Shown: piece after piece, positions 1 through 4,324 of the stretch | Numbering within the stretch: position 1 is the stretch's first letter | Layout of the letters: every line of letters begins with the position of its first letter | From: a virus | Lineage: Duplodnaviria > Heunggongvirae > Uroviricota > Caudoviricetes | Length of the DNA stretch: 4,324 nucleotides | Virus record (IMG/VR): IMGVR_UViG_2671180781_000004 | Coordinates: 1 to 4,324 of that record | Reading direction: 5' to 3' (one strand) | The notes under the pieces: generated by a model | The model's database searches: none | What the model was told of the DNA's origin: nothing | The model's input: the letters and a program-made list of their open reading frames with translations, nothing else | Program-made: the position numbers and the translations under genes

Positions 1-1
1 G

Positions 2-454
2 AATCTGTTCGGTCTGGTCACCGGAATGGCGGAGGACCTGCAGAGCCTGGTGGGGGCCACGGTGGTCCGCCGCCGGGTGTATGCCCGTTTTCTGGATGCG
101 GTGAATTTTGTGGCGGGCAATCCGGAAGCGGACCCGGAGCAGGAGCTGAGCGACCGCTGGGTGGTGGAGCAGATGTCAGAGCTGACGGCCATGACAGCCT
201 TGTTTGTGCTGGCAACACCGACGGAGACGGACGGAGCGCTGTTTCCTGGTCGCATCATGCTGGCGAACACCTGTATGTGGGATTACCGGGGAGATGAATG
301 CGGGTATAACGGTCCTGCGGTGGCGGATGAGTTCGACACCCCCACCACGGATATCCGTAAGGACAGATGCAGCAAGTGCATGCGCGGGTGTGAGATGCGC
401 GGCATGGTGGCTAATTTTGGCGGTTTCCTTTCCATTAATAAACTTTCGCAGTAA
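2..454 (+). CDS. L: Tail tip assembly protein L (gpL-like), 5'-truncated by the window edge; C-terminal cysteine-rich domain present
   Basis: Open frame runs from the window edge (frame of nt 2) to TAA at 452-454. The translation (...MAEDLQSLVGATVVRRRVYARFLDAVNFVAGNP...NTCMWDYRGDECGYNG...DRCSKCMRGCEMRG...) is recognisable as the C-terminal part of lambda gpL, including its cysteine cluster. It lies immediately upstream of K, as in lambda. Confidence 0.9.
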   Translation, partial: NLFGLVTGMAEDLQSLVGATVVRRRVYARFLDAVNFVAGNPEADPEQELSDRWVVEQMSELTAMTALFVLATPTETDGALFPGRIMLANTCMWDYRGDECGYNGPAVADEFDTPTTDIRKDRCSKCMRGCEMRGMVANFGGFLSINKLSQ

Positions 455-464
455 ATCCCGGTTT

Positions 465-1208
465 ATGACACAGACTGAATCAGCGATTCTGGCACATGCC
501 CGGCGGTGTGCGCCTGCGGAGTCGTGCGGCTTCGTGATAAGCACGCCGGAGGGGGAGCGGTATATCCCTTGTGTGAATATTTCCGCAGAGCCGGAGGCGT
601 ATTTTCGTATCGCACCGGAAGACTGGCTGCGGGCAGAGATGCAGGGGGAGATTGTGGCACTGGTCCACAGTCATCCCGGTGGGCTGCCCTGGCTGAGCGA
701 GGCTGACCGGCGGCTGCAGATAAAAAGCGCACTGCCCTGGTGGCTGGTCTGCCGGGGTGACATTCACAAATTCCGCTGTGTGCCACATCTGACAGGACGG
801 CGCTTTGAGCACGGGGTGACGGACTGTTACACGCTGTTCCGGGATGCCTACCATCTGGCGGGAATTGATATGCCGGATTTTGAGCGTGAGGATGACTGGT
901 GGCGTAACGGTCAGAACCTTTACCTGGACAATATGGCGGTCACCGGCTTTTACCGGGTGCCCCTGTCCTCTGCACAGGCGGGCGATATCCTGCTGTGCTG
1001 CTTTGGCGCATCGGTGGCCAATCATGCCGCCATATACTGCGGCAACGGTGAGCTGCTTCACCATCTGCCTGAACAACTGAGTAAACGGGAGAGGTATTCC
1101 GAAAAATGGCAACGACGAACGCATTCAGCCTGGCGTCACCGCCACTGGCACGCATCTGCCTTCACGGGGATTTGCAACGATTTGGCCGCCGCCTCAGCCT
1201 GTATGTGA
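465..1208 (+). CDS. K: Tail tip assembly protein K (gpK-like), 247 aa, with an N-terminal JAB/MPN (JAMM) domain and a C-terminal NlpC/P60 domain
   Basis: ATG at 465, 10 nt after the L stop; TGA at 1206-1208. The protein starts MTQTESAILAHARRC..., as in lambda-type K proteins. JAMM motif H-S-H-x7-S-x2-D at residues 68-81 (nt 666-707). NlpC/P60-type Cys at residue 121 (TDCYT, nt 825-827) and His at 187 (NHAAIY, nt 1023-1025), followed by HH at 199-200. No obvious Shine-Dalgarno, so translation is probably coupled to L. The six-frame ORF starting at 204 is only the open frame extending back into L. Confidence 0.87.
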   Translation: MTQTESAILAHARRCAPAESCGFVISTPEGERYIPCVNISAEPEAYFRIAPEDWLRAEMQGEIVALVHSHPGGLPWLSEADRRLQIKSALPWWLVCRGDIHKFRCVPHLTGRRFEHGVTDCYTLFRDAYHLAGIDMPDFEREDDWWRNGQNLYLDNMAVTGFYRVPLSSAQAGDILLCCFGASVANHAAIYCGNGELLHHLPEQLSKRERYSEKWQRRTHSAWRHRHWHASAFTGICNDLAAASACM

Positions 1209-1786
1209 ACACGGCAGCGGAAGCCATTCGCGCCCTGTCGATGCAGATGCCGGGCTTTCGCCGTCAGATGAACGAAGGCTGGTACCAGATACGTATTCGC
1301 GGTGAGGACACGGCACCGGAGGCGGTGTACGCCCGTCTTCACGAACAGCTGGGTGAGGGGGCGGTCATCCATATTGTGCCGCGACTGGCCGGGGCCGGAA
1401 AGGGTGGACTGCAGATTGTGCTGGGGGCGGCAGCCATCGTGGGCTCTTTCTTCACTGCCGGGGCATCAATGGCGTTATGGGGTTCAGCCCTGGCAGCCGG
1501 TGGTTTTTCTGCCACCACGATGCTGTTTTCACTGGGGGCCAGCATGATACTGGGTGGTGTGGCTCAGATGCTTGCCCCGAAGGCTAAAGTACCGGAGTAC
1601 AAAAGCACGGATAACGGTAAACAGAACACGTACTTTTCCTCGCTGGATAACATGATTGCCCAGGGGAACCCGATGCCGGTGCCTTACGGTGAAATGCTGG
1701 TTGGCTCCCGGCGAATCTCTCAGGACATCAGTACCCGTGATGAAGGCGGTGGCGGGAAGGTCGTGGTTATCGGGCGGCAGAGGTAA
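1106..1786 (+). CDS. I: Tail tip assembly protein I (gpI-like), 226 aa; N-terminal ubiquitin-like (beta-grasp) region followed by a Gly/Ala-rich hydrophobic segment
   Basis: ATG at 1106, preceded by GGGAGAGG (1087-1094) as a ribosome-binding site; TAA at 1784-1786. The protein (MATTNAFSLASPPLARICLHGDLQRFGRRL...VIHIVPRLAGAGKGG...) is recognisable as lambda gpI. The start lies 103 nt inside the 3' end of K in a different frame, which is the same overlap geometry as lambda K/I. Confidence 0.9.
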   Translation: MATTNAFSLASPPLARICLHGDLQRFGRRLSLYVNTAAEAIRALSMQMPGFRRQMNEGWYQIRIRGEDTAPEAVYARLHEQLGEGAVIHIVPRLAGAGKGGLQIVLGAAAIVGSFFTAGASMALWGSALAAGGFSATTMLFSLGASMILGGVAQMLAPKAKVPEYKSTDNGKQNTYFSSLDNMIAQGNPMPVPYGEMLVGSRRISQDISTRDEGGGGKVVVIGRQR

Positions 1787-1826
1787 AAAGAATAAAAAAA
1801 TCCCGCAGTGTTGCGGAGCTGCGGGA
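1787..1826 (-). terminator. Putative rho-independent terminator for leftward (minus-strand) transcription, abutting the I stop codon
   Basis: Inverted repeat TCCCGCAG (1801-1808) / CTGCGGGA (1819-1826) with a 10-nt loop. On the minus strand the hairpin is followed by TTTTTTTATTCTTTT (complement of 1800-1787). On the + strand no T-tract follows it, so it is oriented for the minus strand only. Confidence 0.5.
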
Positions 1827-1956
1827 GAGTTACGAAGATTAACTATAGAGAATTATTCTTATGTCACGACAAAAAACATTAACGCAGAGAAATTATTAGT
1901 ACCACAGTCAGTTTGTGAAAATGTGAAGATATTCAGAATTTTTATTCAGTCATGAT
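1827..1956. other. AT-rich intergenic core between I and J with no credible protein-coding capacity; possible moron or small-RNA locus
   Basis: My hand count gives about 38 G+C in 130 nt (about 29%), against visibly GC-rich flanking tail genes. It is flanked by the two hairpin terminators. It contains short direct repeats: AGAGAATTATT / AGAGAAATTATT (1847-1857, 1886-1897), TGTGAA twice (1914-1919, 1922-1927) and TATTCAG twice (1930-1936, 1943-1949). Confidence 0.4.
1892..1919 (-). promoter_or_regulatory. Candidate sigma70 promoter on the minus strand: -35 TTCACA, 16-bp spacer, -10 AATAAT
   Basis: Read on the minus strand: TTCACA (complement of 1919-1914), a 16-nt spacer, then AATAAT (complement of 1897-1892). 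These match the consensus at 5/6 and 5/6. The predicted start would be near 1885, about 90-100 nt upstream of the minus-strand terminator. Found by eye in AT-rich DNA, so the false-positive risk is high. Confidence 0.3.
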
Positions 1957-1990
1957 ACAGGCATCCTCCGGGATGCCTGTTGTTTTTGTG
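1957..1990 (+). terminator. Putative rho-independent terminator on the + strand, ending 32 bp upstream of the J start codon
   Basis: Perfect 10-bp GC-rich stem ACAGGCATCC (1957-1966) / GGATGCCTGT (1971-1980) with tetraloop TCCG, followed directly by TTGTTTTTGTG (1980-1990). Confidence 0.65.
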
Positions 1991-2021
1991 CGTAACAGTT
2001 ATCACAGTAAAGGGTGAGACA

Positions 2022-4324
2022 ATGGGCAAAGGTGGCGGCAAGGCGCACACGCCGGTAGAGGCAAAGGACAATCTTAAGTCCACGCAGATGATGAGCGTGA
2101 TTGATGCCATTGGTGAAGGGCCGATTGAAGGTCCGGTGAAGGGGCTGCAGAGTATCCTGGTGAACAAAACCCCGCTGACGGACACGGACGGCAATCCTGT
2201 GATACATGGTGTGACAGCGGTCTGGCGCGCCGGGGAGCAGGAGCAGACACCACCTGAAGGCTTTGAGTCCTCCGGGGCGGAAACCGCACTGGGCGTGGAA
2301 GTGACGAAGGTAAAGCCGGTGACGCGCACCATTACGTCCGCGAACATTGACCGCCTGCGGGTCACCTTCGGGGTGCAGTCACTGTTGGAGACCACCTCAA
2401 AGGGCGACCGTAATCCCTCTTCTGTCCGACTGCTGATTCAGTTGCAGCGTAACGGTAACTGGGTGACGGAAAAGGATGTCACCATTAACGGCAAGACCAC
2501 CTCACAGTACCTGGCGTCGGTGATTCTGGAGAATCTGCCTGAGCGGCCCTTTAACATCCGGATGGTCCGGGAGACAGCGGACAACACCCCGGACCAGCTG
2601 CAGAATAAGACGCTCTGGTCGTCATACACCGAAATCATCGATGTGAAACAGTGCTACCCGAACACGGCGATTGTGGGGTTGCAGGTGGATGCGGAGCAGT
2701 TCGGCGGCCAGCAGATGACGGTGAACTACCATATCCGCGGTCGCATCATCCAGGTGCCGTCAAACTATGACCCGGAAAAACGCACGTACAGCGGCATCTG
2801 GGACGGCAGCCTGAAACCGGCATACAGCAACAACCCGGCCTGGTGCCTGTGGGACATGCTGACTCACCCGCGCTACGGCATGGGAAAACGTCTGGGGGCG
2901 GCAGACGTGGACAAATGGGCGCTGTATGCCATTGCGCAGTACTGCGACCAGACGGTCCCGGATGGTTTCGGGGGCACAGAGCCGCGGATGACCTTTAATG
3001 CGTACCTGTCACAACAGCGTAAGGCGTGGGACGTTCTCAGTGATTTCTGCTCGGCGATGCGCTGTATGCCGGTATGGAACGGCCAGACGCTGACGTTCGT
3101 TCAGGACCGCCCGTCGGATGTGGTGTGGCCGTACACCAACTGCGATGTGGTGGTGGATGATAACGGCGTGGGGTTTCGCTACAGCTTCAGCGCCCTGAAG
3201 GACCGCCACACGGCGGTGGAGGTGAATTACACCGACCCGCAGAACGGCTGGCAGACCTCCACGGAACTGGTGGAAGACCCGGAAGCCATACTGCGCTACG
3301 GGCGCAACCTGCTGAAGATGGATGCGTTCGGCTGCACCAGTCGCGGTCAGGCCCACCGTGCCGGGCTGTGGGTGATAAAGACCGGACTGCTGGAAACGCA
3401 GACGGTGGATTTCACGCTCGGGTCACAGGGGCTGCGTCACACACCCGGTGACATTATTGAAATCTGTGATAACGACTATGCCGGGACCCTGACCGGCGGA
3501 CGTATCCTGTCCATCGATGCCGCCAGCCGCACCCTGACACTGGACCGTGAGGTGACCCTGCCGGAGACAGGTGCCGCCACGGTGAACCTGATTAACGGCA
3601 GCGGTAAGCCGGTGAGCGTGGCCATCACTGCACACCCCGCGCCGGACCGGATACAGGTCAGCACCCTGCCTGATGGTGTGGAGACATACGGTGTATGGGG
3701 GCTCTCCCTGCCGTCACTGCGTCGTCGCCTGTTCCGCTGTGTCTCCATCCGGGAAAACACGGACGGCACCTTTGCCATCACGGCGGTGCAGCACGTACCG
3801 GAAAAAGAAGCCATCGTGGATAACGGGGCCAGCTTTGAGCCGCAGTCAGGCACCCTGAACAGCGTTATTCCACCGGCAGTGCAGCACCTGACGGTGGAGG
3901 TGAGCGCGGCTGACGGTCAGTATCTGGCACAGGCGAAATGGGACACGCCGCGGGTGGTGAAGGGTGTGCGCTTCAGTCTGCGCCTGACCAGTGGAAGCGG
4001 TGAAAACAGCCGCCTGGTGACCACCGCCATCACCGCAGACACGGCGCACCGTTTCAGTGGCCTGCCGCTCGGGGAATACACCCTGACAGTCAGGGCAATT
4101 AACAGTTATGGCCAGCAGGGCGAACCGGCCACCACCACCTTCCGGATTAACGCGCCAGCAAAACCCGCCACCATTGAACTGACGCCGGGGTATTTTCAGA
4201 TAACGGCGGTCCCGCGTCTTGCGGTGTATGACCCGACGGTACAGTTTGAGTTCTGGTTTTCGGAGACAAAAATCGCAGACACATCTCAGGTGGAAACCGC
4301 TGCCCGTTATCTGGGGACCGGCAG
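2022..4324 (+). CDS. J: Central tail fibre / host specificity protein J (gpJ-like), N-terminal ~767 codons; 3' end lies beyond the window
   Basis: ATG at 2022, preceded by AAGGGTGAG (2010-2018). The frame stays open to the window end. The translation ([54 protein letters not shown]...[45 protein letters not shown]...) is highly similar, by recall, to the lambda J N-terminal and central regions. Confidence 0.93.

Follow-up and report, generated by a model that had tools for sequence, protein, structure and literature searches.

The DNA analysed here, the window, is a stretch of 4,324 nucleotides from a virus of the class Caudoviricetes (positions 1 to 4,324 of IMG/VR virus record IMGVR_UViG_2671180781_000004). 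At 1957–1990, on the coding strand in the gap between the tail genes I and J, it carries a canonical intrinsic-terminator-like hairpin, and this assignment is confirmed. The explanation that we favour, with a probability of roughly 0.6, is that the hairpin belongs to the phage backbone as an intrinsic terminator at the I|J boundary, which would halt polymerase not modified by Q, would be read through in lytic growth and would have had cassettes inserted upstream of it. Elements of this kind are known, and so is the terminator of phage HK639 at the same junction.

Genes of the window and the I–J spacer

The window holds, in this order, the 3′ end of the tail gene L, the genes K and I, a spacer of 235 bp and the initial 2.3 kb of J. 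The tail assembly gene I occupies 1106–1786 on the + strand when the longest open reading frame is taken, with its stop codon TAA at 1784–1786. RefSeq homologues of I begin at the equivalent of ~1205, and the identical or near-identical loci of E. coli O55:H7 and E2348/69 carry the annotation 'tail assembly protein'. The 5′ part of the tail tip or host specificity gene J (2022–4324, + strand) starts with the ATG at 2022, which is preceded by AAGGGTGAG, and was assigned from the RefSeq annotation of near-identical loci. The spacer between the two genes (1787–2021) is AT-rich according to the GC profile, with a GC content of 0.29 at 1850–1949 against 0.55–0.63 in the flanks, and its counterpart in lambda measures 60 bp. 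The 4.3-kb window does not reach Q, pR′ or tR′. On the same strand of Sp15, the homologous prophage of Sakai, Q and tR′ are situated ~23 kb upstream.

A 21-codon open reading frame on the + strand (1952–2017) spans the hairpin and stops 5 nt ahead of the J start. It is probably no gene, since it lacks a Shine–Dalgarno sequence and both its length (19, 14 and 21 codons) and its sequence vary among loci. The heptamer CAGACAT occurs once in most of the J leaders with a GTG start (ATTCAGACATCAGACAGG) and three times in phage 1717 and in one IMG/VR contig (L017 and L045), ~30–60 nt 5′ of the J start; it is a small variable tandem repeat placed between the terminator and the ribosome-binding site of J. 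The locus of E. coli O157:H7 NE92 (L004, 579–843) has lost K and I by deletion and has a truncated L, yet the sRNA spacer, the terminator and J are intact.

Structure, energy and polarity of the hairpin

The stem-loop occupies 1957–1980 of the + strand and reads ACAGGCATCC-TCCG-GGATGCCTGT. It was delineated by a consensus scan, by folding and by stem variants with compensation, and it forms 10 perfect pairs around the 4-nt loop UCCG. The T-tract TGTTTTTGTG follows at 1981–1990, as read from the sequence and the scan, and a T-tract is retained in all the hairpin families. The original prediction had described a 10-bp GC stem with a tetraloop and a T-tract. The length, the loop and the tract stand, but only 6 of the 10 pairs are G–C and the remaining 4 are A–T.

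Its call of a strong + strand terminator between I and J was borne out by the scan and by the folding energies. The 24-nt hairpin alone gives −18.8 kcal/mol (z = −5.46), with 0 of 200 shuffles equally stable, while the hairpin plus its flanks gives −19.9 kcal/mol (z = −4.35). It is the longest and strongest of seven terminator-like sites in the window, where shuffles predict 3.8. From the I stop codon (1784–1786) to the hairpin the distance is 171 nt. The element had also been placed immediately upstream of J; it does lie between I and J, but the end of its T-tract is 31 nt away from the J start codon (2022–2024).

Intrinsic terminators have a G+C-rich stem of ~5–14 bp with a loop of 3–8 nt, and here the values are 10 bp and 4 nt. 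On the transcribed strand, the U-rich tract follows the stem directly, and the hairpin shares its strand with I and J, in the path of the transcript and downstream of I. When the same stem is read on the − strand, it is followed by AUCAUGAC and no U-tract is found, so that the polarity of the hairpin is + only.

A search of the whole window against Rfam gave no match at E ≤ 1, which means that neither the hairpin nor the sRNA described below fits a curated Rfam family. The hairpin family is also unannotated in the RefSeq and GenBank records examined for related loci, which carry CDS features only. When genome contigs were scanned with the pattern CAGGCA-N10-TGCCTGT-NN-TTTT, unrelated bacteria were among the matches listed. 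This shows only that, among those matches, palindromes of this type are generic terminator shapes.

The same junction in other phages

The I–J gap of lambda is 60 bp long and has no insert. It contains AACCGCC-TGCG-GGCGGTT followed by TTGTCATTT (NC_001416, about 15464–15492), at the same position and with the same polarity as in the window. It differs from the hairpin of the window in its 7-bp stem, in its energy (−12.3 versus −18.8 kcal/mol) and in its position only 19 nt after the I stop, and it is without annotation in the lambda record. In phage HK639 (GenBank HM208537, 19137–19160) the sequence AGCACCC-AATT-GGGTGCT followed by TTTTTTA lies in a 55-bp gap between HK639_22 (tail assembly) and HK639_23 (host specificity). 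The depositors labelled it 'terminator', and it ends 17 nt ahead of the J-type start codon. The junction, the strand, the G+C-rich stem (7 bp), the 4-nt loop and the T-tract are as in the window, whereas the stem has no sequence similarity, no sRNA insert is present and the J protein is only ~35% identical. The HK97-like phage mEpX2 has GGCCACC-TTCG-GGTGGCT followed by TTTTTA in a 52-bp gap, likewise free of an insert. In lambda, HK639 and mEpX2, a + strand hairpin with a T-tract is found 17–75 nt ahead of J, in stems that are unrelated in sequence.

Because the same architecture exists in these insert-less phages, the hairpin is not specific to the insert, and the suggestion that it ends a locally initiated + strand transcript is not supported. 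Where no insert exists, such a hairpin could act only on transcripts that pass through I. The best reading of the sequences is that the terminator would be a feature of the backbone, lying outside the transcription unit of the sRNA cassette.

Not every related junction possesses the element. ES18-like and Mannheimia phages have I–J gaps of 9 and 2 bp with no hairpin. These phages, together with the sodC spacers and the 342-bp spacer class described below, show that the I–J terminator is dispensable. The HK639 record has six terminators within the structural late operon, one of them after the major tail gene. In lambda, further intergenic + strand terminator-like hairpins are located after E, J and lom (L469; 7163–7180, 18920–18935 and 19612–19633). 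With hairpins before and after it, lambda J is bracketed by terminators on both sides.

Survey of four J lineages

About 340 loci in all were surveyed, 80 being fetched for each of four J types. The hairpin test included sub-stems, so that a G–T extension cannot absorb the T-tract. A + strand terminator-like site within 100 nt of the J start was found in 19 of 24 distinct upstream sequences of the window type, 44 of 45 of the lambda type, all 43 of the HK639 type and 46 of 49 of the mEpX2 type, while control windows inside J gave 37 of 1764. To avoid circularity, the strongest Watson–Crick hairpin was chosen in a second pass without a tail criterion. Of the 159 distinct upstream sequences from the four J lineages, 143 contained such a tail-blind hairpin, whereas only 37 of 1770 controls inside J did. 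The mean number of T in the 8 bases that follow it was 5.0–6.9 compared with 0.68 for the control hairpins, and the A content upstream of the stems was low. T-richness after the stem and the scarcity of A before it mean that the surveyed hairpins have + polarity. Moreover, the one-sided T-tract is kept in four unrelated stem families, which is the chief argument that termination rather than mere RNA folding was selected.

Within the family of the window, one pair of the stem occurs as U:A, C:G and U:G, and G:U wobbles, which pair only in + strand RNA, account for 8 cells against 2 C/A cells. Covariation in this family is not significant, with one pair changing on both sides and 112 of 500 shuffles reaching an equal value, and hence the argument rests on the recurrence across lineages. 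The observations comprise the structure and polarity of the hairpin, its recurrence at the junction in forms unrelated in sequence, and the preserved T-tract.

The T-tract also bears on another explanation, in which the hairpin is an RNA stability or processing element. It would then be a barrier to 3′–5′ exonuclease that protects the I segment, or a folded leader of J, setting the ratios of the tail-tip proteins, with termination as a by-product. Hairpins that stabilise mRNA are often invoked at such intergenic places, and similar hairpins are those after E, J and lom in lambda and after the major tail gene in HK639. The late transcript is expected to read through the element, so any lytic role of the hairpin must be at the level of RNA. 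In addition, the PasB-type sRNA (see below) has perfect complementarity to late mRNA just upstream (1794–1885), which could create a cleavage site. Nevertheless, a stabiliser needs no U-tract, yet every family holds 5–7 T in the 8 bases after the stem. Protection of the I segment is also at odds with the fact that the I protein is not needed in quantity; large amounts of it are not required in lambda. We regard a stabilising role as unlikely.

The antisense sRNA unit of the spacer

The insert of the spacer contains a homologue of PasB, an Hfq-dependent sRNA of EPEC E2348/69, and probably also of EcOnc22–24 of EHEC Sakai. It was placed at 1794–1885 on the − strand by alignment, by the probe and by coordinates. 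Its 3′ end at 1794 corresponds to the published end of PasB, while the 5′ end is at ~1871 from the alignment or at ~1885 from the position of the promoter. A sigma-70-type promoter, TTCACA-16-AATAAT, is predicted at 1892–1919 (− strand) from the scan and from related loci, 11 of 12 of which have TTCACA-16-TATAAT. Scan and folding gave an intrinsic terminator for the sRNA at 1794–1817 (− strand), with the stem at 1817–1802 followed by ATTTTTTTAT. Promoter and terminator would together make up a small antisense transcription unit. The Northern probe for PasB, AATCCCGCAGTGATCGCGGAGCT, matches the window at 1799–1820 with one mismatch and one indel, and the mean column identity between the spacer of the window and that of E2348/69 is 90% in the alignment. 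Homology, I–J synteny, the antisense strand and a predicted promoter and terminator of its own thus point to a PasB/EcOnc22 locus. The antisense sRNA gene, complete with promoter, body and terminator (1794–1919, − strand), is left unannotated in the RefSeq records examined, and the original prediction spoke only of an insert.

Table S6 of PMC8550237 lists PasB as an 83-nt Hfq-dependent RNA at NC_011601 1466343–1466261 on the − strand, between E2348C_1436 (I) and E2348C_1437 (J). Zhu, Shabalina and Storz describe PasB as embedded within a phage structural-gene operon (see also bioRxiv 10.64898/2026.05.13.724894). For EHEC Sakai, PMC4104026 and Table S2 of Tree 2014 report the Hfq-CRAC peaks EcOnc22/23/24, which are ~85 nt long and lose stability when Hfq is missing. 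EcOnc22 runs antisense to the Sp15 late operon and falls inside the I–J spacer of this prophage (NC_002695.2 2,902,691–2,902,930; L346) after a genome-version shift of ~128–135 bp, estimated from the tR′ landmark. The hairpin of this Sp15 spacer occupies 2,902,741–2,902,764 on the − strand of the same record. By way of this estimated shift we infer that EcOnc22/23/24 are probably the EHEC counterparts of PasB in the I–J spacers of Sp15, Sp14 and Sp11. For PasA and PasD1 the EPEC table names EHEC homologues, and for PasB it names none. Two other identities were rejected: AgvB/AsxR-type anti-sRNAs lie downstream of pR′, outside the tail region, and the late-region sRNA HnrS (EcOnc10–12) has different coordinates. 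A complement to the 3′ end of mazF was looked for in the spacer by eye and none was seen.

According to these sources, PasB and EcOnc22–24 are Hfq-dependent RNAs of 83–85 nt, antisense to the late operon and situated between I and J. They and the hairpin at 1957 are neighbours in one spacer, but they belong to opposite strands and separate transcription units. The + strand hairpin is not mentioned in the portions consulted of PMC8550237, bioRxiv 10.64898/2026.05.13.724894 and PMC4104026.

Comparison of the spacers revealed a further conserved element, the box AAATGTGAAGATATTCAGAATTTTTAT at 1919–1946, with a CRP-like palindrome at 1922–1937. The box is present in every sRNA module. The half-sites of its palindrome, TGTGA-N6-TCAGA, are kept, and the N6 differs among loci (AGATAT, AGAATT, AGAGTT, AGAAAT and ATAAAC). 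Each sRNA module ends in the box AAATGTGAAGAWWTTCAGAAWTTTTAT, ~10 nt ahead of the stem. On the right-hand side, the box marks the limit of the exchangeable sRNA modules. It lies just upstream of the sRNA promoter, with its centre at ~−44.5 from the predicted start, which is no canonical CRP spacing. PasB was reported to be higher in a non-activating than in an activating condition. We assume that this difference may involve glucose.

The original prediction had found no convincing + strand promoter in the insert; our promoter scan agrees and extends this to the whole window. Nor does the hairpin end the insert's own transcript, as the insert unit is read from the opposite strand and ends with a terminator of its own. 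There would remain a short + strand transcript, an sRNA or a tiny mRNA, that starts in the insert, divergent or antisense to the PasB-type gene, and has its 3′ end at the hairpin. The two terminators do face outward from the insert as in a divergent pair, the conserved CRP-like box stands between them and the 21-codon frame overlaps the hairpin. However, no promoter-like site was found on the same strand in the window, only about 10–35 nt separate the conserved box from the stem, and the 21-codon frame is variable and without a Shine–Dalgarno sequence. For the homologous spacer, the Hfq-CRAC peak list of Sakai contains the antisense-strand sRNA alone and no late-sense peak, and none of five spacer/UTR feature labels occurs in the available portion of the EPEC RIL-seq supplements. 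Together with the terminators of lambda, HK639 and mEpX2, which have no insert, these results make a local transcript highly improbable, and it is the weakest of the alternatives.

Exchange of cassettes at the junction

Classes of spacers were drawn from about 100 related I–J spacers. The hairpin family of the window follows PasB-type modules, a second − strand module (L015) and two tandem modules (L009). As it accompanies different − strand sRNA modules, the hairpin is independent of which sRNA is present. In the 342-bp class, PasB and the box are kept and another segment follows, with a different hairpin ~125 nt before J. The 851-bp class contains a − strand sodC moron and has no + strand hairpin in the spacer.

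Several observations on the exchange itself were made. The I–J junction swaps − strand cassettes (L009 603–1025, L015 489–731, L013 606–948 and L022 350–1200), and the module of L015 is sRNA-like and unrelated to the PasB type. In L022, a Cu/Zn superoxide dismutase gene (sodC) has taken the place of the PasB promoter, and the 3′ portion of PasB is left downstream of sodC. ExPEC strains (CE10, ST131) possess an alternative 150-bp segment with a hairpin, AAACCCCGGTATC/GATACCGGGGTTT, and a − strand promoter-like site. The sRNA and sodC cassettes are swapped at this I–J hot spot always upstream of the terminator, where a terminator is present.

A 10-bp perfect inverted repeat at such a place might instead act at the level of DNA, where a protein could bind it or it could mark a hot spot or boundary at which cassettes insert. 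The several kinds of cassettes inserted here (two sRNA types, tandem sRNAs and sodC) and the module edges ~10 bp from the stem would suit this proposal. On the other hand, the stems of the lineages share no sequence but only an RNA-type architecture with a T-tract on one strand, and among the variants are G:U wobbles, with which the helix is kept in the + strand RNA only. The chance of a DNA-level element is accordingly slight.

Promoter–gene–terminator cassettes between late genes are known from the moron model (Juhala et al. 2000, as cited in PMC4104026). The window resembles that model in having a late-operon terminator, which the late antiterminator would override, beside a cassette with its own promoter and terminator. 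It differs in that its cassette lies antisense and is closed by a separate − strand terminator, while the + strand terminator would be older than the cassette and does not form its end.

Proposed mechanism

In the + strand RNA, the 10-bp stem would form directly ahead of the U-rich tract, and unmodified RNA polymerase would be released. During lytic growth, polymerase modified at pR′ by the late antiterminator Q would pass the terminator, and J would therefore still be made. It is established that Q-modified polymerase ignores terminators over >20 kb (summarised in PMC7547250), and for this reason terminators in late operons are tolerated. For polymerase in a lysogen or from a stray promoter, transcription would halt before J and the genes beyond. 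Such unmodified polymerase might have started astray within the tail genes or the AT-rich spacer, or, in a lysogen, might have leaked past tR′. The terminator would have been there first, and the PasB-type and other cassettes would have entered between it and the I stop codon. We infer that transcription ends at the hairpin in vivo, that Q overcomes this stop, and that the hairpin was selected to contain non-antiterminated transcription. The insulation of J from polymerase that is not antiterminated, put forward in the original prediction as its other option, is plausible on sequence grounds and would fit all the findings.

A leaky or regulated attenuator would lower J and the downstream genes even in lytic growth, or some influence, such as base pairing between the antisense sRNA and the nascent late RNA just upstream, would adjust its efficiency. 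In all the lineages the element is directly ahead of the ribosome-binding region of J (17–75 nt), and ~70 nt separate the stem from the end of the late-RNA stretch to which the sRNA is complementary. Nevertheless, the disregard of Q-modified polymerase for terminators, described above, speaks against attenuation; no upstream sequence able to pair with an arm of the stem was seen by eye, and lineages without any sRNA retain the terminator. We consider attenuation very unlikely.

It might also be proposed that the pre-J terminator is a selected checkpoint and no passive leftover, and that in prophages with PasB it might, together with the antisense sRNA that pairs with the late RNA just upstream, tune readthrough or processing at I|J. 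This proposition is speculative and its probability low. The rebuilding of the terminator from unrelated sequence in several E. coli lambdoid lineages would then suggest that the transcription of the host-range gene J and of the cargo beyond it has to depend strictly on antitermination.

Significance of the junction

The hairpin matters little alone, as terminators in late operons are familiar and the same junction has already been annotated in HK639. A full annotation of the I–J spacer of Stx and EPEC prophages is now possible; it comprises an antisense sRNA with its promoter and terminator, the conserved box and the terminator assigned to the backbone. Term-seq data exist for EHEC Sakai (GSE143631; PMC7547250). 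The recurrence of a pre-J terminator in unrelated forms suggests selection for the silence of J and the downstream cargo when antitermination is absent, which is testable with Term-seq.
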